Under the pieces are notes generated by a model. The model searched no databases and was not told the origin of the DNA. It worked only from the letters and a program-made list of their open reading frames with translations. Of a DNA stretch of 64,000 nt, positions 51,893 through 63,471 are shown one piece after another. A program made the position numbers and the translations under genes. Positions within the stretch are counted from its first letter, which is position 1. Every line of letters begins with the position of its first letter. The stretch is from an uncultured Verrucomicrobiae bacterium (GTDB lineage: Bacteria; Verrucomicrobiota; Verrucomicrobiia; Palsa-1439): positions 256,001 through 320,000 of the forward strand of contig CAWEWF010000005.1 in assembly GCA_963812605.1 (NCBI GenBank), given 5' to 3'.

Positions 51893-53770
51893 CTATTGCG
51901 GCAGGAGAATGAATGCGTCGGCAGTCAGGGTGAAATTAGTCGAGGGATTGCCTTTGCCGGTCACGGTTAGCCGGACGGCATGATTTCCCGTGGTTGGAAG
52001 GTTGGTCACACCGAAGTCCACCAGCGGATAAAAATTGGTCGGCCAGTATTGATCGAGTGTTGTGCCGAACACATTGCCGTCGCAAGTAAGGTTCATTTGC
52101 CCGCGGTTGTTGCCGGCTTTGAACGCGAGCAGGAGGCGATATATGCCTGCCGGAACATTGGGGATGGTGAACTCGATATAATTGCCCGCGCCCGTGCTAT
52201 TGAGCGTTATCAGTGCATCGCCGCTGGCGTTGGTGTCGATGGACGAGGAGGCGGTCGCGCCGTTGGTGACATACGCCAGAGATTCGGCCTCAAAATTCAG
52301 GGGCACCGGCGCGCTGGGCGGCGGGAAATGAAGACGATAAAACCCGCAATTGGCAACCGACCCGGTGGCGATATTTTGCCAGCTTGAACTCACCGAGAAC
52401 GTGCCAATGAAGGCCGTCCAGTCGGCGAGATTGGTTGACGTTTCGAAGATGAAATTGGTGATGCCCGCATTCCAGGAAACCACGACCTGGTTATTGGTTG
52501 CGGCAATATCCAGTTGCGGGCTCAGCAAGATCTCCGCGCCGGCGAGCATGACCGGGCCGGGCCCGTGCGGGTCGTTGCTGGCGGGTTGTTGCGTGACGAC
52601 GTAATAGTTGAAGCTATTGGTGAGACTCGTACCGGGGCAGACCTGGTTGACGACGCCGTTGGTCGTGATGTAATTGCAGAGGCCCGCGAAAGCTTTGCGG
52701 GCCACCGCCATGGTCGCGGGATCGATCCAACCGCGATTGACCGCGCGCGCGATGCTGTAGGCGAACATGGCGGTGCAGGAGGTTTCCTTCCAGACTTCCG
52801 GGTGATCCAGCACTTGATGCCACATACCGTCGGTGTCCTGCACGGATTCGATGCCGGCGATGTGGCGGCTGAGGATATCCAGCAAAGCAGGGCGCGCCGG
52901 GTGATTCGTCGGCATCGCGGAAAGCACTTCCACCGTTGTTACCATGGCCCAGCCGTTGGCCCGGCCCCATTTGATGCCGTTCACGGAATGCGTGTCGTGA
53001 TAGTAACCGTGAAACCAAATGCCGTTCGTATCCTGGAGATAACCGGCCATGTTCATGACCTGCGTGGCCGCATCGTTCAGATAATTCGAATTGCCGGTGT
53101 ATTTATACATGCGGACGAGAAATGGGCAGCTCATGTAAAGATCATCCGCCCAAATCGTGTCCGAACTCTCCGGCCGCCAGAGCGTGCCGTCGGGCAGGCG
53201 CGACTGGCCGGTGCTGACCCAATTGGCGGTCGTCTGGGCGACGAAGGCCTGCAAGTTCGTCATCGTCCCCGTGTGATGGAGCGCGCCTTCGAACAATTGC
53301 GCCGTCATCGCGCCGCAATAGTCCAGGCGGTCGATCGCCATGAATTCGCTCAAAGCGGTACCGGCGTAGAAGGATGCCAACTGCGCGGAGGTCGCGTTGG
53401 TGACGGTGCTTTTCAAGCTGTTCAGCCAGGAATAATAACGGGCGCAGATCAAATTGTGATCGAGGACGAAATTCTCAAAGGTCGTGTTGCCGGTTGCGTC
53501 CTTGACGCGGAGCATTCCGTAGAGGGTGACGCCCCACTGATAGGTCCAGGTGATACCGGTCGGTTTTTGGGCCGACTGCGCCGCCGAGAGCGTTTTGGCG
53601 GTGGCATAATTTCCGTCGGCCAACGTTTTGAGCTGGTTGCTGGCCACGAGTGAGATGACGTTGTATATCGAGGCATCCGTCAGGCCGGACAAGTCACCGG
53701 CCCGGACGACGCTGCAAAGAAGCAAACAGGCGCACATGACAGGAAATCCGAGCTTTGCAGCCTGGCGCAT
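51893..53770 (-). CDS. Exported GH105/GH88 unsaturated glycuronyl hydrolase with C-terminal CBM-like domain
   Basis: WTYQWG, LDYCG, WADDLYM, WGRANGW, GMWHQVLD and ETSCTAMF motifs; C-terminal FEAE...GNYIEF. Confidence 0.88.
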   Translation of the reverse strand: MRQAAKLGFPVMCACLLLCSVVRAGDLSGLTDASIYNVISLVASNQLKTLADGNYATAKTLSAAQSAQKPTGITWTYQWGVTLYGMLRVKDATGNTTFENFVLDHNLICARYYSWLNSLKSTVTNATSAQLASFYAGTALSEFMAIDRLDYCGAMTAQLFEGALHHTGTMTNLQAFVAQTTANWVSTGQSRLPDGTLWRPESSDTIWADDLYMSCPFLVRMYKYTGNSNYLNDAATQVMNMAGYLQDTNGIWFHGYYHDTHSVNGIKWGRANGWAMVTTVEVLSAMPTNHPARPALLDILSRHIAGIESVQDTDGMWHQVLDHPEVWKETSCTAMFAYSIARAVNRGWIDPATMAVARKAFAGLCNYITTNGVVNQVCPGTSLTNSFNYYVVTQQPASNDPHGPGPVMLAGAEILLSPQLDIAATNNQVVVSWNAGITNFIFETSTNLADWTAFIGTFSVSSSWQNIATGSVANCGFYRLHFPPPSAPVPLNFEAESLAYVTNGATASSSIDTNASGDALITLNSTGAGNYIEFTIPNVPAGIYRLLLAFKAGNNRGQMNLTCDGNVFGTTLDQYWPTNFYPLVDFGVTNLPTTGNHAVRLTVTGKGNPSTNFTLTADAFILLPQ

Positions 53771-53835
53771 CCAGGCATTTTACCACATACGGATTTCTCT
53801 GCTCGATATTATTCCAATCGCCTTGTAGCATTGCG

Positions 53836-55301
53836 ATGATGGTATCGACTGGGAACAAACTACTGCGACGGGTTCTCCAGACTGTCCTATTCAGTGTGGT
53901 GGCGATGGAGGCGCACGCGGGCCTTTGGATCTCGGCTTACTACGCGGGCTGGATGCAAAGTTACCTGCCGGCGCAGCAGGTCGATTTCACGGCGATGACG
54001 CACATTATCCATTTTGCCGTGGTGCCCAGGGTTGACGGGACCCTCGACGGCGACGCGAATGCTGTCACGTTGGCGAATTCCAAGGATATCGTCGCTCGCG
54101 CGCATGCCGCGAAGGTCAAGGTACTGATTTCCGTGGGCGGAGAGAATAGCGCGGATGGTTTTCGGGGCGCGACGACCGCGGCGAACCGGCCGCGTTTCAT
54201 CACGAACCTCGTAAACTTCGTCACCGCACGCGGCTACGATGGCGTCGATTTGGACTGGGAACCGTTGGATGCGCCGGATGGCGGTCCATATTCCAATTTG
54301 GTCAACGAGCTGCGTCTCGCGCTGGATGCCATCACTCCACGTCCACTGCTGACGGCGGCCGTGGGATCTCAGCCGTCACTGTTTGCTTCCCTGCAAAGTC
54401 GGTTCGACCAGATCAACCTGATGACCTACAGCTTTTCCGGGGCATGGCCCGGTTGGGTGACGTGGTTTCATGCACCCATTTACGACGGTGGCTATAGGTT
54501 CGCGAGTCGGGCGAGTTGGTGCCATCCGCCGACGGAGTCGTTAGCAATTTTCTGGCGCATGGTGTGGCTGCCGGCAAACTTGGGATCGGGATTTCCTTCT
54601 ACGGTTGTGTTTGGAGCGGAGGCAACGGCACGTCCACCGGCGGCGCGGCGTTGCCGCGCCAATCCTGGACGACAGCACCGACGGTGGCCCCGGTCGCCTA
54701 CTCGGCGATCATGTCCAACTACTATCAGCCGCAATTGTATTTCTGGGATACGAACGCGCAGTCGGCTTATCTCAGTATCGACCGTCTGGGGGCTGCCAAT
54801 GACAAGTTCATTTCCTACGACGATCCGACAGCCTGCCGCGCCAAAGTTGCGTACGCCAAACTGAAAGGATTGGGTGGCCTGATCATTTGGGAGTTGGGAG
54901 GCGGCTACCGCGCCGACCAACCGGCCGGTCAGCGCGACCTGCTATTGCAATCCGTCAAACAAGCGATCGCCAGTCACGCAGTCGCAGCAGACGCGGCGAT
55001 AGAGTGCTTCGTAGCGGGGCACGATGACCTCCGCGGAAAATCGTTCGCGGGCGCGATCTTTTGCCGCGCAACCCAGTGCGGACCGGCGGACCGGGTCTTT
55101 AATCAAACTTTCGACGGCCCGCGCCAGGATATCAGCGTCTCCCGATGGCACCAGCAGTCCGGTCACGCCATTTTCGACGACCTCCGGAATCCCGCCTACG
55201 CTTCGAGCAATGCTGGGGCAGGCAAAACACATCGCTTCCAAAATGCTCAGGCAAAAACTCTCCGTTTCGGATGTAATCAGCCCAAGGTCGGCGGCCTGTA
55301 G
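53836..55301 (+). CDS. Exported GH18 (chitinase-like) hydrolase; frameshift near 54510; domain ends near 54970, 3' end uncertain
   Basis: KVLISVGG, catalytic YDGVDLDWE, NLMTY, FISYDD and GLGGLIIWELG motifs. Confidence 0.85.
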
Positions 55302-56115
55302 ATAATCTTCGATGTCGTTGACCTTGTCGCGCACGATGACCCGGTTTTCGAGGCCAAGCCGCCGCACCATGTCGACGAACGGCGTGAAGTCCCCGCCAGC
55401 GAGAATAAGCAGTTTGAACGAATCTTGCGGACGAATGCGCGCGACGGTATCGAGCAATAAATCGATGCGTTTCAACGGACGAAGATTGGAGGAATGCAGT
55501 ATTAGCACCTCGTCTTGCACGCCGAGGTCGCGCCGCACTTCCGTCCGCGAGCGCAGAGGCGGGCGGGGCGCGAAGAAATTATGGATCACATCGATTGGTC
55601 GATCCACCGCGAGCAATCGCTGGGTTTCCTGTTGCAGGAAAGCCGACACGGTCGTGATGGCATCCGAGCAGGCGAGGGCGTGGCGGATCGCCGGCCCGTA
55701 CCCCGGATCGCGGCCCAGCAACGTGGTGTCCGTGCCGTGCAGTGTGGTGACCACGCGGGGTTGTTGCTCCGGCGGCAGCATCGACTGCGCGAGGATGGCG
55801 GCCGTCGCGTGGGGCACGGCGTAGTGGACGTGCAGTACATCCAACTGATGGTCGCGGCTCACTTCCGCCATCTTGACGGAGAGCGGGCAGCGTGTAATCG
55901 GGGTACTTGAACAGATCGTAGTCGTTGATGATCACCGGGTGGAAATGCAGGCGAGGGACATCGACCGGCAAACGGAACGGACGTTCGTAGCTGATGAAAT
56001 GCACCTCGTGGCCGCGTTTCGCCAACTCTTCGCCCAGGGCGGTGGCGAGGATGCCGCTTCCCCCCACCGATGGGTAACAGGTGATGCCGATTTTCAATGG
56101 GCGGCTGGTGGTCAT
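54942..56115 (-). CDS. bshA: N-acetyl-alpha-D-glucosaminyl L-malate synthase; frameshift near 55885
   Basis: [45 protein letters not shown] and [11 protein letters not shown] motifs. Confidence 0.92.
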
Positions 56116-56121
56116 GGCAAA

Positions 56122-56859
56122 TCAAAAATGCCGCGCGCCCCGGCTCACGGGCACGAGCGAGTCGAAAACGAGTGGATCGTTCGGAAAGAGGGCGATGGCA
56201 TGACCGATTCCGGCGCGCAGTCCGCGCAGACGGGCGCGGGTGAGTTGCAACTCGACGTAATTGCGGGTGCGAGCCTGCGACGCATGCGCTTCCATCGCGG
56301 CAGTCCACGCGCCGAGGATTTCCCGTGCGGAGACGTTGATGAGAATCGGCGTAATGTCGGAAGGCTCGGCTTCGGGCGTTACTGCGTAGAAAAAGAGTTG
56401 ATCGATGGCATGCGGAGGCGCGGCGCGCAATTCCTTCACGCCGCCGTAACGAGCCAGCCGCGCCGCGTCGCGGACGAGTTGTCCGAGTCGCGCGTGGTCG
56501 GGATGCTGATTTTCCACCAGGCTCGGCGCGAGCACGATGCCGGGTCGCGTGCGGCGGAAAATTCTGGCGAGCTTGATGGCGTGGGCGACGCGGACCTCCA
56601 GGTGCGCATCGCCATCGAGTTCGATGAACTCCACTGTCGCACCGAGGAGCGCCGCGGATTTTTTTGCCTCGGCGACCCGTTGCGCGGGCGTGCCGTGCGT
56701 CGCCGCTTCGCCGCGCGAGCAGACGACGAAATGCGCGGCGCGGCCGGCGCGGGTCTCGCTGGCGACAACCCCGCCACAGCCGAACTCGATATCGTCGGGA
56801 TGCGCGCCAAAGGCCAGGAGCGATGCGAGTTTACGACGGGATTTCGGTATAAGCTTCAT
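56122..56859 (-). CDS. bshB1: PIG-L family deacetylase, BshB1-like
   Basis: AFGAHPDDIEFGCGG, SRGEAATHG, HPDH and AHASQ motifs; next to bshA. Confidence 0.85.
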   Translation of the reverse strand: MKLIPKSRRKLASLLAFGAHPDDIEFGCGGVVASETRAGRAAHFVVCSRGEAATHGTPAQRVAEAKKSAALLGATVEFIELDGDAHLEVRVAHAIKLARIFRRTRPGIVLAPSLVENQHPDHARLGQLVRDAARLARYGGVKELRAAPPHAIDQLFFYAVTPEAEPSDITPILINVSAREILGAWTAAMEAHASQARTRNYVELQLTRARLRGLRAGIGHAIALFPNDPLVFDSLVPVSRGARHF

Positions 56860-57607
56860 CGGAACGGTCAATTGTATCACGGTTTACGAACGTAATCCCC
56901 GGCGTTTCTTGCGGATGCAGATAGATCTGTTCGCTGGCCCCGCAAACGTAGTGGGTGCAATGCACGACTGATTGCATCCAACGAAGCCGGGTGTCGCGCG
57001 CCGGGCTGATTTGGTCCCTGGTGAATGCGGTTGCCGGCAGGGTCACGAAACGGTCTCCGCCCTCGTGAAGCGTGAAGACGCCATCGCAACACCGGGCGCG
57101 CACGATTTCACCCTCGTGCGGCACGTCGACGAAGAACTCCTCGACGTCGCACGCCGCGCGCCGGAACGACGGGTCGCTCGAACGCGCCACGCGCAGGCCA
57201 TCGAGCAGTCCAATGCGGCGGTACATCTCCAGACAAAAATCAGCCGCATTTTTGGCGGAAGTTTCCTGGAAGATCTCGATACAGCGGCGCTCGACGTAAT
57301 TGGGCAATTGAAGCGCGGTCCGGGCGTGCCAGTCCGGGGGGATGCGCTTGAGATAGAGCGGGGAGAATTTTCGCTGGAGTTTGTTCTCGAAAGTGAAGTT
57401 GAGGTGCGCCGGTTCACCGGTCTTGCGGTGGCGCAGGAGGGTTTTGGTCTCGCGCGGATCGTGGTCGCTATCGTGGTAGAAAAACACGATCTCGCCTCCG
57501 ATCTCGGCTTGCAGCCGCCGGGCTGTCTGGATTTTTGCCACCAGAAACCGTTTCGGGAAGAACCCGCACGGCTGCTGGCCGAAACAGATGACGGGCGTGG
57601 TGCTCAT
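56831..57607 (-). CDS. Short (258 aa) BshC-like protein
   Basis: GQQP.GFF...AKI, FFYHDSDHD..E and RWMQ...YVCGASE..Y parallel the BshC motifs TGQQ, EDHD and GGPGE..Y; directly upstream of bshB1-bshA. Confidence 0.7.
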   Translation of the reverse strand: MSTTPVICFGQQPCGFFPKRFLVAKIQTARRLQAEIGGEIVFFYHDSDHDPRETKTLLRHRKTGEPAHLNFTFENKLQRKFSPLYLKRIPPDWHARTALQLPNYVERRCIEIFQETSAKNAADFCLEMYRRIGLLDGLRVARSSDPSFRRAACDVEEFFVDVPHEGEIVRARCCDGVFTLHEGGDRFVTLPATAFTRDQISPARDTRLRWMQSVVHCTHYVCGASEQIYLHPQETPGITFVNRDTIDRSDEAYTEIPS

Positions 57608-59295
57608 GGGGCGGCCAAAAGCGGCGCGGCCTGGATGATCAGGCTGAACAGAATGCAGGCGGCGCAGCCGATGAAGTTGTACCAGAGATAGCTGATGTTC
57701 AGCGAAAAATAGAGAATGAAAACGAGGGCTTGCGCCGCCAGGGCTCCCCAAAAGATCGCCGTACCGCCGACCCGACGGAAGAAGAACGCCACGAGGAACA
57801 GCGCGAGCACCACGCCGTAAAAGATCGAGCCGACGATGTTGACGGCCTGGATCAGGTTCTCGACCAGGTTCGCAAAAAGAGCGAAGGCGAGCGCCACCAG
57901 GCCCCAGAAGAGGGTGAACCATTTTGAGGCGGCCACATAGTGCGCATCGGTCGCATCGCGCTTGATGATGTGCCGGTAGAAATCGATGGTGGTCGTCGAA
58001 CCGAGCGCGTTGAGTTCGGCGGCTTTCGACGAGAGCGCGGCGGCGAAGAACGCCGCGACGAGCAGCCCGATCACCCCGTGCGGCAGATGGTCCAGCACGA
58101 AGGTGATGAACACGTAGTCGGAGTCGTTGGTTTTCGCATGCGAATCCGCCGCCAGCAGCGCCGTTTTGACGTCGGCGCGCACGGCCTCGCTGCGTTCGAG
58201 CGCCGCCTGCGCCTGCGCGCGGGCCGCGGCCTCCGCTTTGTGGTCGCCCGAATGTTTGGCGTCGAGCCAGGTGTGAATCAGTCGTTCCTTCTCGGCGTGG
58301 ATCGCGGCGAATTGCTGCTGGAGGGAATGCAGCCGGTCGCCCGGATCATGTTTGGCCTCGAGGTTCCAGGCAGTCTGGTTGAAAAAGACCGGCGGCCGTT
58401 CGAACTGGTAGAAGACGAAGATCAGCGAGCCGAGCAGGAGAATGAAAAATTGCATGGGGATTTTGAACACGGCATTGAACATCAGGCCGAGCCGGCTTTC
58501 GCGCAAGGACGCACCCGAAATATAGCGTTGCACCTGGGATTGGTCGGTGCCGAAGTACGACAGCGACAGGAAAATGCCGCCGAGCAAGCCGGACCAGAAA
58601 GTGTAGCGCCGCCTGATATCGAGCGAGAAATCCACCGCCTGGAGTTTGTGGAAGCCGCCGGCCACGGTGAGGGCGTCGGTCAGCGAAAGGTTCGACGGCA
58701 ATCTTGCCAGCAAGACGACGAAGGCGGTCACCATCCCGCCAAAGATCACGGCCAACTGGTATTTCTGGGTGAGGGTGACCGCTTCGCTGCCACCGGCCAC
58801 GGTGTAGACGATGACCAGCAGGCCGCTGAGGACGATGGTGAGGTCCAACCGCCAGCCCAGCATGGTGGAGAGGATGATGGCGGGCGCGTAAATGGTAATT
58901 CCCGCGGCGAGCCCGCGTTGCAGGAGAAAGAGCGCCGCCCCGAGCAGACGGGTCTTGGTGTCAAAGCGGTGGCCCAGGAACTCGTAGGCGGTGTAGACAT
59001 TCAAGCGCCGGTACATTGGCAGGAAGACCGCCGCGATGATGATCAGCGCCAGCGGCATCCCGAAATAGTTCTGCACGAAACCCAGTCCATCCTGATAACC
59101 CTGGCCGGGAGTGGAGATGAAAGTGATTGCGCTGGCCTGGGTAGCCATGACCGAAATGCCGATAGCGGCCCATTTCACGTTTGGGTCACCCTTGAGGTAG
59201 TCGCTCAGGTTCTGCTGGCCGCGCGTGCGCCACATGCCATAGAGGGCGATTCCGACCATGCTGCCGATCAGGACTACGAAATCGAGCGGGCTCAT
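57604..59295 (-). CDS. Sodium:solute symporter family protein
   Basis: SVMATQASAITF, TAYEFL..RF, YFGTDQSQVQRY and AAALSS motifs; many transmembrane helices. Confidence 0.92.
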   Translation of the reverse strand: MSPLDFVVLIGSMVGIALYGMWRTRGQQNLSDYLKGDPNVKWAAIGISVMATQASAITFISTPGQGYQDGLGFVQNYFGMPLALIIIAAVFLPMYRRLNVYTAYEFLGHRFDTKTRLLGAALFLLQRGLAAGITIYAPAIILSTMLGWRLDLTIVLSGLLVIVYTVAGGSEAVTLTQKYQLAVIFGGMVTAFVVLLARLPSNLSLTDALTVAGGFHKLQAVDFSLDIRRRYTFWSGLLGGIFLSLSYFGTDQSQVQRYISGASLRESRLGLMFNAVFKIPMQFFILLLGSLIFVFYQFERPPVFFNQTAWNLEAKHDPGDRLHSLQQQFAAIHAEKERLIHTWLDAKHSGDHKAEAAARAQAQAALERSEAVRADVKTALLAADSHAKTNDSDYVFITFVLDHLPHGVIGLLVAAFFAAALSSKAAELNALGSTTTIDFYRHIIKRDATDAHYVAASKWFTLFWGLVALAFALFANLVENLIQAVNIVGSIFYGVVLALFLVAFFFRRVGGTAIFWGALAAQALVFILYFSLNISYLWYNFIGCAACILFSLIIQAAPLLAAP

Positions 59296-59423
59296 GAAAA
59301 CGTGACCGTCAGCGCGACGAGGAGTCCCACCCAAATGACGAAGGAGACGAGAACGAAAATGTAAACCGCGCGCCAGGTATTAAGCCACGGCAAGCCGGTC
59401 GCTTTGTCGTCCAATGGCTTCAT
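59292..59423 (-). CDS. 43-aa single-helix membrane protein, probable symporter partner
   Basis: Below the ORF-track cutoff. Manual translation MKPLDDKATGLPWLNTWRAVYIFVLVSFVIWVGLLVALTVTFS*; ATGA overlaps at both ends. Confidence 0.8.
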   Translation of the reverse strand: MKPLDDKATGLPWLNTWRAVYIFVLVSFVIWVGLLVALTVTFS

Positions 59424-61929
59424 TTTCCCAGTGAAATCAGGTTGGCAAAGAGCCGGTAAGCGCCCGGTACGCCTTCGGGCAACTGGCGGAACCAGGACAG
59501 CCCGGTGTAAACGAAATAGCCGCGACCGTAATGCGCCACGAGGAGGCTCCCGTTCTTGGGCGACTCGCCGGGATCGTTGCAGGCAAGGAGCGGCGTGAAA
59601 TGGTCATCCCATTCGCCGGCGAAATACAGTCCGCGCTCCTGCACCCAACCATCGAAATCGGAGGCAACGATACGGTTGGGGGTCGTAAACACCGGATGGT
59701 CGGGAACGAGCAGGGTCATCGGCGCATTTTCGTCCGTGACGCGGTCGCGCGAGATCTTCAGGTTGTAAGGAGCGAGATGGGTCGTCAGCAAACCATCGGT
59801 CGTATTGTATTGGACGATGACATTGCCGCCGGCTTCGACGTACGCGAAGAGGCCGGGCAGATTTTGGACGAGGTCCGTGCGGGTATTGAAAGCGCGGATG
59901 CCAATCACCACCGCATCGAAGCCGCGCAGGCGGTCCGCTGTCAGATCCGCGCCGGTAAGAAGTGTCACGGCGTAACCCATTCGTTGGAGGCTCTCGGCGA
60001 CGGAATCGCCGGCACCGGGCAGGTAGCCGATTTGATGGCCACGAATCGCCAAGTTGAGACTCAGCGCCTTGAACTGCGCGGGGGGCTGCAGCAATAGCGA
60101 TGGGATATGATCGTGGTGAATCTCGACGTGCCGATTGTGGTAGGTCTTGCCATCGATCTCGGCAGCGGCGAGGATTTTCGCAGTCGTGGAGTTCGTCGGG
60201 GCGGTGATGGTGAAAGTAAAGCGCGCCAGCTCATTGTAATTGGTCAGGGAGAACGAATATGTCGCGGGCGTTACTTTCCAATCGGCGGGCATTTCCAGAT
60301 GGAGCGTGCCGGTTGCCCCGGCGCGGGCCGAGGTGACTTCGACCACCACGGGCTTGGCCGTGCCCGGAGCGAACAGCGCGAGGTCTTCGGGAAAATTGAG
60401 CGAAACGGGCGGGATCACTTCCAGGCGCTGACGAATTTCGCCTTTCACCCGGTCACCGATAACTTGTACAGGTTCGTCGGGAATGACCAGCGTTTGGCCG
60501 TCGACTTCGAACACATACTCCACCGGAAATGCCGGAGGATTTTCGGGACGGCCAATGAGCGAAGGATCGTCCACGCGGAACATTCCGATTGTGCCCTCTT
60601 CGCGCAACCAATAAGGTTGGCTCAACGCGGTGTTGGCCGGCAGCGTCCGGGACGATTCCTTGACTGCGGCCTGATTGGGTTTCAAGTCGGCGTTGGTCGC
60701 GAGTTCGTCTCCGCCGGCGGGGTAACGCACGGCAGTCCAGCGCACCGGGAAATCCGTCCGCACCATGGCGCTGTGACGCATCTTCAAGGTTTCGCCGGGC
60801 ACGGCCTCGGCCAGCGGAATCGACGTCTCGACGTACAGCCCGAGGCAGCCTTGCAGGATGTGATCGAGTTGCCGGCGTTTGTATGCAATCACGGTGTCCG
60901 TGGGCAGAGCGGCGAGCCGTCTTCGCAATGTCAACAGGGCCGGCACACTGGCGGCGGGATTCTGCGGGTTGAATTGTGCGATGCCCTCGTCAGTCAATTT
61001 TCCGATCTCCGCGCCATTGGGAACGCGCGCCCAGGTTGTGTCGACGCCATCAAGGATGTCTTTGGTTGCGGGCTCGCCAGCGAGGAGTTGGAAGGTTTCG
61101 TTGGCGTTCCCGCGAGTGCCGACGCTGCCGAAGCCCTGGGTCTTGTGCATGGACCGGCTTTTAGCGGCGATTTCGCCGTAGGATTCACCGAGGAGCGGGT
61201 TGTAGCCGCCGATGTCGAGCTGAAGGCCGGGAGGTGTGTTGGTTCCACTGTCTGTGCCGCGTCCTCCGAATCCCCGGGGGAAGCCATTCCAGAGAATGCG
61301 TTTTGGCTGCCACGGCTGCAACTCGCGGAGTTGGTCGGGAAAAGCATTGGTGTCACCGGCGAGCTTGAAGGCTTCGACGGCGAGAATTGCCGACGCGGTG
61401 TGATGACCATGCGTGTTGCCGGGTTCGGTGGAAAAGCGCGTGATAAGCACATCGGGTCGGAATTCGCGGATGACCCGCACAACGTCCGCCAGCACTTGTT
61501 GACGGTCCCAGATGCGGAACGTCTCGCGGTAGTCCTTGGAAAATCCGAAGTCGAGAGCGCGCGTGAAGAATTGCTGGCCACCGTCGATGCGGCGGGCGGC
61601 GAGCAACTCCTGGGTGCGGACCACGCCCAGTTCTTCGCCCAACTCGGGGCCGATCAAGTTTTGGCCGCCATCGCCGCGGGTCACGGAAAGATAGCCGGTA
61701 CGATAGCCGCGACCGCGCGAGAGGTAGGCGATGAGGCGGGTGTTTTCGTCGTCGGGATGGGCGGCGATGTAAAGCACGCTGCCCATTTCGCGAAAACTGC
61801 GGAGTTCCTGCAGAATCGCTGACGCCGACTGTGGGTCGGCGGCTTGGGTGCCGACCGGAAGGCCGAGCCAGCGTCAAGACACCAGCGGCAAGGAGGCGGA
61901 AGGAACCAAGGACTGCGGATGGCCGGCAT
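59420..61929 (-). CDS. Large exported PIG-L/LmbE family deacetylase with Ig-like and C-terminal GATase-like domains; indels in the signal-peptide region
   Basis: AAHPDDEN, TRGDGGQN, DFGFSK and HGHH motifs; upstream ATG 61929 with a hydrophobic leader joining QAADPQSASAILQELRSF. Confidence 0.88.
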
Positions 61930-61931
61930 TT

Positions 61932-62501
61932 TTATTTTTTGACCGTGAACGGCACTGAGAATTGCGTGCTTTCCCACATCATCTTTAATAGACCACCGCC
62001 GGACGAATTCTTCTCAATCGCCATGGTGAATTGATCGACTGGCTTGTCCAGAGCGTCCTTCTTCAGGTCGATGCGCGCGACATCTTGAGACTCGTCATAT
62101 ACTTCTTTGAAATCACCGCGACTGGCGCCCCATTGGCCGATTTGTTTGTTAATGACCAACTTGGCCGTGCCGTCTTCATTCGGGAGGGTCCAGAGCGTGT
62201 ACGCGCCCGCGGGGATCGTCGTGTCGCCAAAGGCGAGCGGCTTTTGCGTGATGAGGAGCGTGGCTTCGTCGGAGCCGGTGCGCCAGACCTTGCCGTAAGG
62301 CACCAGTCCTCCCCAGATTTTGCGGCTCTCGCCTGTCTTGGGGTCCTTGGTGTACGGACGCCCGTAAATAATCGTGATGCGATTGCCATCGATGACGGTG
62401 CTGATGGTGTCATGGGGGCTGACGCGTTTTTGCTGGGCCATAAGCGGCGAGGCGCTGAGGATAACGGCGGCGATCACAAATGCGGACTTGAACTGGTTCA
62501 T
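61932..62501 (-). CDS. Exported DUF2911 domain protein
   Basis: Signal peptide; SP, YGRP, GGLVPYGKVWRTG.DEAT, AG.YTL.T.P and WE motifs. Confidence 0.88.
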   Translation of the reverse strand: MNQFKSAFVIAAVILSASPLMAQQKRVSPHDTISTVIDGNRITIIYGRPYTKDPKTGESRKIWGGLVPYGKVWRTGSDEATLLITQKPLAFGDTTIPAGAYTLWTLPNEDGTAKLVINKQIGQWGASRGDFKEVYDESQDVARIDLKKDALDKPVDQFTMAIEKNSSGGGLLKMMWESTQFSVPFTVKK

Positions 62502-62531
62502 GCTGTCTCCCGTGTAGGTTGGGCAACTAGT

Positions 62532-63417
62532 TTATTTGGACGAAAGGCTGGAGATCAGGTCCTGGTTCATCTTCACGAATGAACTGGAGGGACCTTCGGC
62601 TTTGACTGCCAACTCGCTGGATTCCTTGGCGGCGGCAATCGCGCCGGGCTTATCGCCCTGCTTCGCGAGAATCTTCGCCTTCAGGTTTAGCAACTCATAG
62701 GCAATGCGGGGCTTGTCGGCGAGACCCGTATCCAGCCACGCGAGGGCCTTTTTCAGGTCGAGATCGTGATTGAAATAAAATGTCGCGGCCTGGAAATAAA
62801 ACTGCGGTTGCTTTTTGTCCGTCGACGCCATGGCGGCTTCGACTTGCGGCACGACCTTGCTGACGACCTCGACTTCGAGATGGATGGGGACGACGGTCTT
62901 TTCCCAGACGAGTTCGAGAAGGGCGGTTTCGTCGCGGATATGATTAAACTCAATCGCGAAGGTCTCGATGCTGTTTCTCCGCCAGCTTCACGGGAGCGGC
63001 CTTGAAGCGCACCAGATCGTTCTCCGGCTTGTAACCGAACGCTCCAAAACTATTGGTGTCCTTGGAGATGATGATCGTCCACTCCTCTTCTCCGGGAATG
63101 GTAAAGAGCGAATACTTGCCCGCGGGAACTGCGTTGCCGTTGAGCTTCACATCGGTTGAAAAGGAAATCTTTGTGGAGGCGTTCGCGCCCGTGCGCCACA
63201 CTTCGCCGTAAGGAACGATGCCGCCGTAGATCGTCCGTCCCTTGACGCTGGGCCGGGAATAGGTGATCTCGATGTCGGTGAGACCGATGTGTTGTTTGAG
63301 AGTAGCGGTGGGACTGGCCTGAGGGAAATCGACTTTGGGTGTCTGGGCCAGGAGCCCGGTCGCGAAAGCCCAGACGAAAACAGACAGCAGAGAGAAGTAG
63401 CGCGCGTGTGATTTCAT
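62532..63417 (-). CDS. Exported DUF2911 domain protein with a C-terminal TPR-like helix bundle; frameshift near 62975
   Basis: PQASP, YSRPSVKGR.IYGGIVPYGEVWRTGAN; second ORF YFQAATFYF...DLKKALAW. Confidence 0.85.
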
Positions 63418-63471
63418 GATTCGAAAGGCTAGCATAACCGAAACGGAATGAAAGCGGGAAGTGGGGGGTGC

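Follow-up and report, generated by a model that had tools for sequence, protein, structure and literature searches.

A conserved Verrucomicrobial gene cassette joins candidate bacillithiol-type biosynthesis genes, including a half-size BshC-like protein, to an exported PIG-L/symporter unit

Introduction

Why would a bacterium keep genes for an exported hydrolase and a sodium symporter in the same gene string as enzymes that resemble those of bacillithiol synthesis? The question is raised by a 64,000-nucleotide stretch of DNA (the window) from an uncultured soil Verrucomicrobiae bacterium (assembly GCA_963812605.1, contig CAWEWF010000005.1, positions 256,001 to 320,000). Eight consecutive genes on the minus strand of this window, between positions 54942 and 63435, run from a DUF2911 gene to bshA. 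A previous interpretation made from the sequence alone (the sequence-only reading) had taken them for an operon that couples thiol synthesis to thiol salvage. We find that the eight genes form a conserved cassette. Our preferred reading is that the cassette has two halves, one for bacillithiol-type synthesis in the cytoplasm and one for salvage or recycling at the envelope, and we give this reading a probability of about 50%.

In the portion of its text available to us, a 2018 survey of thiols counts Verrucomicrobia among the major lineages with "no documented or predicted" low-molecular-weight thiol, and it describes a reliance on full-length bshC orthologues (PMC6282198). This gap would be accounted for by a half-size BshC that escapes standard profiles. 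Our literature search turned up no account of a shortened BshC or of a coupling between a PIG-L/symporter pair and bsh genes, in a coverage that stopped short of the supplementary genome lists of PMC6282198. Among the sources retrieved, some of them as extracts, bacillithiol in Verrucomicrobia was treated only by that survey and its preprint; PMC8261052 proved to be unrelated.

Results and Discussion

Eight co-directional genes recur as one cassette

The first five genes encode the envelope unit. Two exported DUF2911 proteins (PF11138) come first: DUF2911a (62532-63435, with an alternative start at 63417), which has a C-terminal helical TPR-like extension, and DUF2911b (61932-62501, 189 aa). 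They are followed by a large exported amidohydrolase of the PIG-L/LmbE family (PF02585; 59420-61929, with an open frame at 59420-61786), a 43-aa single-helix membrane peptide (59292-59423) and a symporter of the SLC5/SSS family (TIGR00813; 57604-59295). The remaining three genes encode a 258-aa protein assigned by its fold, which we call mini-BshC (56831-57607), a BshB1-like PIG-L deacetylase (PF02585; 56122-56859) and the N-acetylglucosaminyl L-malate synthase BshA (TIGR03999; 54942-56115).

We computed the gene junctions with start codons that are backed by relatives. Adjacent genes are separated by gaps of 30 bp (62532/62501), 2 bp (61932/61929) and 6 bp (56122/56115) or share bases, with three ATGA overlaps (59423/59420, 59295/59292 and 57607/57604) and a 29-bp overlap between the mini-BshC and BshB1-like genes (56859/56831). 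The peptide gene thus overlaps both of its neighbors. Every junction matches the list given by the sequence-only reading, as does the placement of all eight genes on one strand. The longest open reading frame (ORF) of the symporter starts at TTG 59334, and ATG 59295 gives the ATGA overlap with the 43-aa ORF; the longest ORF of the BshB1-like gene starts at GTG 56880. We place the start of mini-BshC at ATG 57607 because relatives and the ATGA overlap favor it. On the same two observations we rejected a 363-aa ORF (56831-57922) as the real gene.

The same eight-gene order is found in nine relatives that hold this stretch. Genome G040 has mini-BshC-BshB1-BshA only, and genomes G006 and G012 are without BshB1. 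To widen the comparison, gene neighborhoods were counted in the 80 best species-level loci, using only those with enough flanking sequence for the gene in question. BshB1 directly follows mini-BshC in 70 of 73 loci, and BshA lies within 2.6 kb of it in 65 of 67. On the other side, the symporter is directly upstream of mini-BshC in 65 of 72 loci (further upstream in 5, and missing in 2), the large PIG-L gene is upstream in 61 of 63, and DUF2911 is upstream in 55 of 59. Most of the 80 loci show the complete gene order. This arrangement is far from chance: we are looking at one cassette, and the adjacency is not a peculiarity of this genome. The genetic link between the envelope unit and the bsh genes is real.

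By record title, carriers of mini-BshC belong to Verrucomicrobiia, Limisphaerales, Pedosphaera, Opitutaceae and Lacunisphaera. Mini-BshC proteins with 70-75% identity and identical synteny also occur in metagenome-assembled genomes titled Binatia, Acidiferrales, Bifidobacteriaceae, Cyanobacteria and Phycisphaerales. These labels look doubtful because of the gene order.

Mini-BshC has the predicted core fold of BshC

The sequence-only reading had called the sixth gene product BshC-like, and both its fold and its phyletic pattern (below) bear this out. An AlphaFold (AF2) model of mini-BshC reached a pLDDT (predicted local distance difference test) score of 94 and a pTM (predicted template-modeling) score of 0.90. 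A Foldseek search with this model returned Bacillus subtilis BshC as its best match (4wbd, E 1.8e-10, template-modeling score 0.68). Alignment with VIA-align placed 242 of the 258 residues on chain residues 81-518 of 4wbd (Z 20.2, root-mean-square deviation 2.8 A). The next match after BshC was class I lysyl-tRNA synthetase (Z 14.8), and other class I synthetases scored below Z 10. Identity between mini-BshC and BshC is 14-15%. Two motifs, GQQ...DHD and a C-terminal QS...Y.xGxxE..Y, are common to mini-BshC and two canonical BshC proteins from Verrucomicrobiota.

Like 4WBD, mini-BshC is predicted to have a Rossmann-type core related to class I aminoacyl-tRNA synthetases. Unlike 4WBD, it appears from the aligned ranges and motif positions to be without the N-terminal ~80 residues and the long helical insertion. 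At 258 aa compared to ~530 aa for canonical BshC, it also lacks the coiled-coil dimerisation region; the accessible text of a review describes an alpha-helical coiled-coil dimerisation domain in canonical BshC (PMC4360819). Reviews, as far as their available sections go, give the activated form of cysteine in the BshC reaction as unknown (PMC4360819, PMC5790435). A minimal BshC of 258 aa, modeled at the confidence given above, would be a simpler object for BshC biochemistry and crystallography. Among 15 mini-BshC sequences, Cys8 and Cys125 are invariant and Cys217 is nearly so. From this conservation, a catalytic or redox role for these cysteines is possible.

The family is large. We collected 6898 homologous proteins at E <= 0.001, and every name given among the 120 listed was 'hypothetical protein'. 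Full-length members are 253-268 aa long. An exhaustive phmmer search grouped the family into 242 clusters at 50% identity, and proteins of the size of BshC were absent among the 150 clusters listed. The gene is present in at least 585 species-level genomes. Judged by its model, mini-BshC represents an unannotated family that corresponds to the BshC Rossmann core, a half-size form of that enzyme that had gone unrecognised.

BshA is the most readily classified of the cytoplasmic proteins. The gene is split in this assembly, and the two pieces match TIGR03999 with 92.4 bits (profile positions 1-71) and 282.6 bits (positions 76-373), so that the C-terminal piece by itself exceeds the cut-off of 273.7. 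Intact orthologues score 381-423 bits, over the equivalog cut-off.

Mini-BshC and canonical BshC replace each other in Verrucomicrobiota

We searched 301 evenly drawn Verrucomicrobiota genomes with five queries. BshA over the curated cut-off was found in 22 genomes. Mini-BshC was found in 20, all of them among the BshA-positive genomes, and the other two BshA-positive genomes (G105 and G282) were the only two with canonical BshC. Both forms together occurred in no genome. An exact mutual replacement (20 + 2 of 22) is the pattern expected of functional equivalents. Large PIG-L was found in 21 genomes, namely the 20 with mini-BshC and G282, and DUF2911 in the same 21. Each of these two envelope genes was therefore present in 21 of 22 BshA-positive genomes and in none of the 279 BshA-negative ones. 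The source genome (4.17 Mb, 15 contigs, 90% complete) gave no match to the canonical BshC profile TIGR03998 anywhere, and glutathione synthetase was not found in it.

Three genomes are informative because the two halves are unlinked in them. In G215 and G248, the PIG-L gene lies with its own DUF2911 far from the bsh genes, and all of the genes are still present. In G282, the DUF2911/SSS/PIG-L unit and bshC-bshB-bshA are on separate contigs. Genes that co-occur without being neighbors are more telling than the phyletic counts.

Based on its fold and on the exact complementarity with BshC, we think it quite probable that mini-BshC does the job of BshC. Bacillithiol-type synthesis by the cytoplasmic half is likely. 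If this is true, bacillithiol-type thiols are predicted in Opitutaceae and in soil and freshwater bacteria of the Limisphaerales type, which would provide a protective thiol for a phylum in which none was predicted before.

The envelope unit combines an exported hydrolase with a symporter

Both DUF2911 proteins are clear members of PF11138 (160.8 bits for the N-terminal piece of DUF2911a and 137.9 bits for DUF2911b, with a gathering score of 27), and DUF2911b is 70-91% identical among relatives. DUF2911 had no match among PDB sequences. In the extracts returned by our literature search, the name was met only in a metasecretome study. A link to bsh genes would give DUF2911 its first functional context.

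The large PIG-L protein matches PF02585 with 58.6 bits and is ~840 aa long when intact. Its PIG-L domain falls far under the cut-offs for Mca, BshB1 and BshB2: the best partial match in NCBIfam is Mca (TIGR03446, 55.5 bits vs a cut-off of 277), and BshB2 (TIGR04000) scores 22 bits vs a cut-off of 195. The AF2 model (pLDDT 83.6) shows a PIG-L domain, a helical linker, beta-sandwich domains and a C-terminal domain that resembles class I amidotransferases, for which Foldseek returned 3fij. The catalytic motifs HPDDE and HxHH are invariant in 13 orthologues. In all seven orthologues that we inspected by eye, and in the DUF2911 proteins, the N-terminus is basic and leads into a hydrophobic segment. 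These leaders speak against a cytoplasmic location of the large PIG-L protein. A large PIG-L protein with 65% identity is present in an NCBI record for Nibricoccus aquaticus.

Known Mca/Bca and MshB/BshB enzymes are small and cytoplasmic. The large PIG-L protein shares with Mca/Bca (BshB2) and MshB/BshB the PIG-L/LmbE domain with its metal-binding and catalytic motifs. It differs from them in its ~840-aa length, its export leader, its beta-sandwich and amidotransferase-like domains and its predicted action outside the cytoplasm.

The 43-aa peptide is kept in all nine relatives with this stretch. Of 58 Verrucomicrobial loci, 55 have a small hydrophobic ORF between PIG-L and SSS. At least 14 of 49 loci on contigs of Bacteroidota type (described below) have one at this position too, a count from an ATG-only search that misses some.

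The symporter exceeds the cut-off of TIGR00813 (217.5 bits, cut-off 184) and matches PF00474 with 128.8 bits. Its closest solved relatives are SMCT1, SMVT, the sialic-acid transporter SiaT (5nv9) and NIS (E 4e-40 to 3e-36, with SMCT1, SMVT and SiaT at 4e-40 to 1e-38), and glucose carriers match at E 7e-24 or weaker. These relatives carry monocarboxylates, carboxylate-bearing vitamins, sialic acid and iodide. Because carboxylate and sialic-acid carriers are nearest to the symporter, an acidic amino-sugar cargo that resembles glucosamine-malate (GlcN-malate) would fit, which is not proof of it. The comparison with SMCT1, SMVT and SiaT covers the first ~300 residues only, and the symporter described here differs from them in being encoded with the conserved 43-aa peptide.

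A candidate salvage loop joins the two halves

The cassette resembles the BshA-BshB-BshC pathway known from Bacillus subtilis and from Chlorobi, Bacteroidota and Deinococcus-Thermus, in that a PIG-L deacetylase gene lies between bshA and the gene for a protein with the BshC fold. The three genes are adjacent, as they are in the bshC-bshB-bshA loci of G282, G105, L156 and L187. Taken as a whole, the cassette is a variant of a known pathway, and the observation is strongly conserved.

Our observations concern gene content, synteny, fold, phyletic patterns and export signals; in the following scheme, every substrate, the identity of the product as a thiol and the way compounds flow are inferred. 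In the cytoplasmic half, BshA would form N-acetylglucosamine-malate (GlcNAc-malate), the BshB1-like PIG-L protein would remove the acetyl group, and mini-BshC would attach the final unit, most probably cysteine, to give bacillithiol or a closely related compound. The envelope half would consist of one or two exported DUF2911 proteins, the ~840-aa PIG-L protein, the 43-aa peptide and the SLC5-type Na+ symporter. Outside the cytoplasm, the exported PIG-L protein would most likely hydrolyse a compound of the GlcNAc-malate, bacillithiol or conjugate type. The symporter would then import a GlcN-malate-type product that re-enters the first half, closing a salvage or recycling loop. This specific salvage mechanism is tentative, and in its details we consider it rather doubtful.

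The logic of the envelope half is similar to that of periplasmic gamma-glutamyl transpeptidase (Ggt) combined with the uptake of glutathione fragments, in which an exported hydrolase also works beside a transporter. The available part of a report on Staphylococcus aureus describes a glutathione import locus with Ggt, a case of a hydrolase beside a transporter for a low-molecular-weight thiol (PMC10355420). The envelope half differs from Ggt systems in that PIG-L is not an Ntn hydrolase, the transporter is of the SLC5 rather than the ABC type, and the thiol backbone would be another one. In the literature we found, the envelope half has no described bacillithiol counterpart, which makes it a candidate for a new accessory system. 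A 2018 review, in the sections available, does not regard transport of bacillithiol or its disulfide into or out of cells as established (PMC5790435). The PIG-L/peptide/symporter/DUF2911 unit is a concrete candidate for this missing bacillithiol traffic.

A broader version of the scheme would be a periplasmic bacillithiol cycle in many Verrucomicrobiota and, by extension, in Bacteroidota and Acidobacteriota. In such a cycle, the thiol, its disulfide, its conjugates or GlcNAc-malate would reach the periplasm and be hydrolysed by PIG-L with DUF2911. The symporter, with the 43-aa peptide as its dedicated subunit, would return GlcN-malate, and the 258-aa BshC would re-ligate cysteine. In lineages without BshB1 (G006, G012 and loci L143, L148, L151 and L152), the exported PIG-L protein could be the sole deacetylase, and synthesis would pass through the periplasm. 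We regard this wider cycle as speculative and unlikely to hold as drawn.

The envelope unit often stands alone outside the phylum

A number of observations weigh against the two-half reading, and we discuss them here and in the two sections below. The first concern the envelope unit. Bacteroidota and Acidobacteriota also commonly carry the large PIG-L family, and the nearest NCBI-named relatives of the G282 protein are from Chitinophagales, Adhaeribacter, Pontibacter and Vicingus. We searched metagenome contigs with an alignment of G282-type PIG-L proteins and obtained 80 loci of Bacteroidota type. SSS lies directly downstream of PIG-L in 45 of the 59 loci that have 1.5 kb of flank or more (elsewhere in 3, and missing in 11), and DUF2911 is present in 25 of the 80. 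A bsh-type gene is near PIG-L in only 6 of the 80 loci, and in 1 of the 31 with long flanks. The envelope unit is thus ancient and, outside the phylum, usually physically alone.

These results fit a scavenging function that is unrelated to thiols, in which one operon would hold separate activities and the envelope unit would take up an acidic amino sugar or a deacetylated glycan (from chitin or peptidoglycan) for carbon and nitrogen metabolism. Three further observations point the same way. The best solved Foldseek match of the PIG-L domain is a diacetylchitobiose deacetylase (E 2.7e-8), GH18 and GH88 genes adjoin the cassette in the window, and PIG-L is apart from the bsh genes in the three unlinked genomes described above. 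A self-standing scavenging unit does not readily account for the Verrucomicrobiota sample, however, in which PIG-L and DUF2911 never occur without BshA. It also does not account for the six exceptions on Bacteroidota-type contigs. Four of these (L143, L148, L151 and L152) have the order PIG-L-SSS-miniBshC-BshA with no BshB1. The other two, L156 (9425-17921) and L187 (9343-17621), have the order DUF2911-PIG-L-BshC-BshB1-BshA-SSS, in which a canonical pathway is nested within the envelope unit, between PIG-L and SSS. The canonical genes of L156 and L187 are over the NCBIfam cut-offs (BshC 490 and 475 bits, BshB1 258 bits, BshA 538 bits). Given these six exceptions, the envelope unit has become tied to bsh genes in at least three gene orders, and with canonical as well as mini-BshC. 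In addition, Bacteroidota and Acidobacteriota, in which the PIG-L family is common, are predicted bacillithiol makers according to the part of the 2018 survey available to us (PMC6282198).

The sequence-only reading had asked for the PIG-L/SSS pair to be profiled against the bsh genes, and had counted independent occurrence of the pair as evidence against a coupling. The answer is divided: within Verrucomicrobiota, PIG-L and DUF2911 are found only with BshA, and on Bacteroidota-type contigs the pair is mostly alone. Weighing both sides, we consider scavenging unlikely, if deserving of serious attention, and a functional tie of the PIG-L/peptide/SSS/DUF2911 unit to the bsh genes fairly probable.

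Sequence and phyletic evidence leaves room for a different product

The cytoplasmic half departs from the canonical pathway in its half-size third enzyme, in a deacetylase that scores under its cut-off, and in that YtxJ, YpdA and bacilliredoxin were not found. These departures, and the limits of the phyletic pattern, form a second group of points against bacillithiol-type synthesis. Sequence comparison does not recover the likeness of mini-BshC to BshC that the fold reveals. Mini-BshC has no match in Pfam or in NCBIfam (including TIGR03998). A profile of 15 mini-BshC sequences, searched against all PDB sequences, gave only a chance match at E 1.8. An hhalign comparison with the two Verrucomicrobial canonical BshC proteins aligned 64 columns, around the N-terminal GQQ...DHD stretch, at E 0.098.

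The deacetylase is also ambiguous. The BshB1-like protein matches PF02585 with 76.6 bits and TIGR04001 with 121 bits, under the cut-off of 182.5, which the canonical BshB1 proteins of G282 and L156 exceed (213 and 258 bits). By profile, BshA alone of the three cytoplasmic enzymes is a member of its family. Genomes G006 and G012, each 95% complete, contain no BshB1 homologue at E <= 1e-5 and keep mini-BshC and BshA, so a simple three-step scheme does not explain them. In these two genomes (L014 and L015/L023), as in L143, L148, L151 and L152, bshA comes directly after mini-BshC with no BshB1 between. The source genome yielded no YtxJ, no YpdA over the cut-off and no bacilliredoxin. This absence is weak evidence because the models also miss known producers among control genomes.

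The phyletic counts, moreover, overstate the independence of the observations because the positive genomes sit in few families (f17 with 16 of 26, f16 with 2 of 21, f42 and f49 with one each, and the family of the source genome). Since the genes are clustered, they can be lost jointly in one event. In five genomes of the same genus (G001, G002, G003, G008 and G016, 84-94% complete), mini-BshC, BshA and large PIG-L are all missing. With five congeners devoid of all three genes, the cassette is dispensable, a present-or-absent accessory trait within one genus, and its loss as a block provides no independent support for a coupling.

Taken together, such observations could mean that the pathway does not end in a thiol. 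Mini-BshC might attach a group other than cysteine or use another acceptor, and the product might be a different malyl-glucosaminide, such as an osmolyte, a metal ligand or a cell-envelope precursor. The missing redox partners, the low identity between mini-BshC and BshC and the dispensability of the cassette are all consistent with this possibility. So is the literature, since reviews from 2015 and 2018, in their available sections, describe canonical BshC as being without demonstrated cysteine ligase activity in vitro (PMC4360819, PMC5790435). A non-thiol product is nevertheless difficult to reconcile with the exact replacement of mini-BshC by canonical BshC across the 22 BshA-positive genomes, or with BshA orthologues that exceed the equivalog cut-off. 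We judge it improbable and retain the two-half reading with a bacillithiol-type product.

Frameshifts in the window are most likely assembly errors

The final point against the two-half reading is that three of the eight cassette genes contain frameshifts in the window. The genes of the proposed eight-gene operon are all present, and the sequence-only reading had overlooked that these three are not single open frames. One extra base near 55887 (CCC vs CC in three relatives) divides bshA into 55579-56115 and 54942-55871. In DUF2911a, an extra base near 62977, beside an A run, separates 62950-63435 from 62532-62852. In the PIG-L gene, the leader ATG (61929) and the body, which is open from 61786, are in different frames, and indels fall at ~61866-61918. 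The three genes are intact in relatives, with lengths of 383-385 aa for bshA, 290-301 aa for DUF2911a and 842-867 aa for PIG-L (828-870 aa in a further set of intact orthologues), and the intact DUF2911a orthologues span both pieces of the split gene.

The neighboring GH18 chitinase-like gene (53755-55301, plus strand) is also split across two frames (PF00704 positions 4-203 and 206-315), the second of which continues across the bshA 3' end, antisense to it. The split adds a fourth apparent frameshift within ~10 kb. In G010 and G015, two relatives assembled into few contigs, mini-BshC matches come in 3-4 pieces in differing frames, which suggests the same kind of indel errors in other few-contig assemblies of the genus. 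We also looked at public contigs from three soil DNA runs of one study. They are short and of low depth, and none spans 55887, 62977 or the PIG-L leader. A 168-nt contig touches 57796-57817 (22 letters) and 61585-61602 (18 letters), which is too short to mean anything.

Because relatives are intact and the neighboring GH18 gene is split as well, we read the frameshifts as assembly indels; this is the most likely explanation and is not proven. That the cassette is instead decaying and inactive in this genome, as three single-base indels in 8.5 kb and its loss from five congeneric genomes might suggest, is very improbable given that the bshA indel is a homopolymer-length difference and the DUF2911a indel lies beside an A run, that GH18 and the G010 and G015 matches are split in a similar manner, that 15 contigs at 90% completeness are the profile of a long-read assembly with residual indels, and that, indels aside, the proteins are 73-91% identical to those of relatives and free of stops.

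Surroundings of the cassette

A scan for promoters and terminators returned 1 promoter-like and 13 terminator-like sites, which is not above the level of shuffled sequence. A 625-aa gene of the GH88 (unsaturated glucuronyl hydrolase) family at 51893-53770 on the minus strand adjoins the cassette. The flanks of the cassette vary between lineages.

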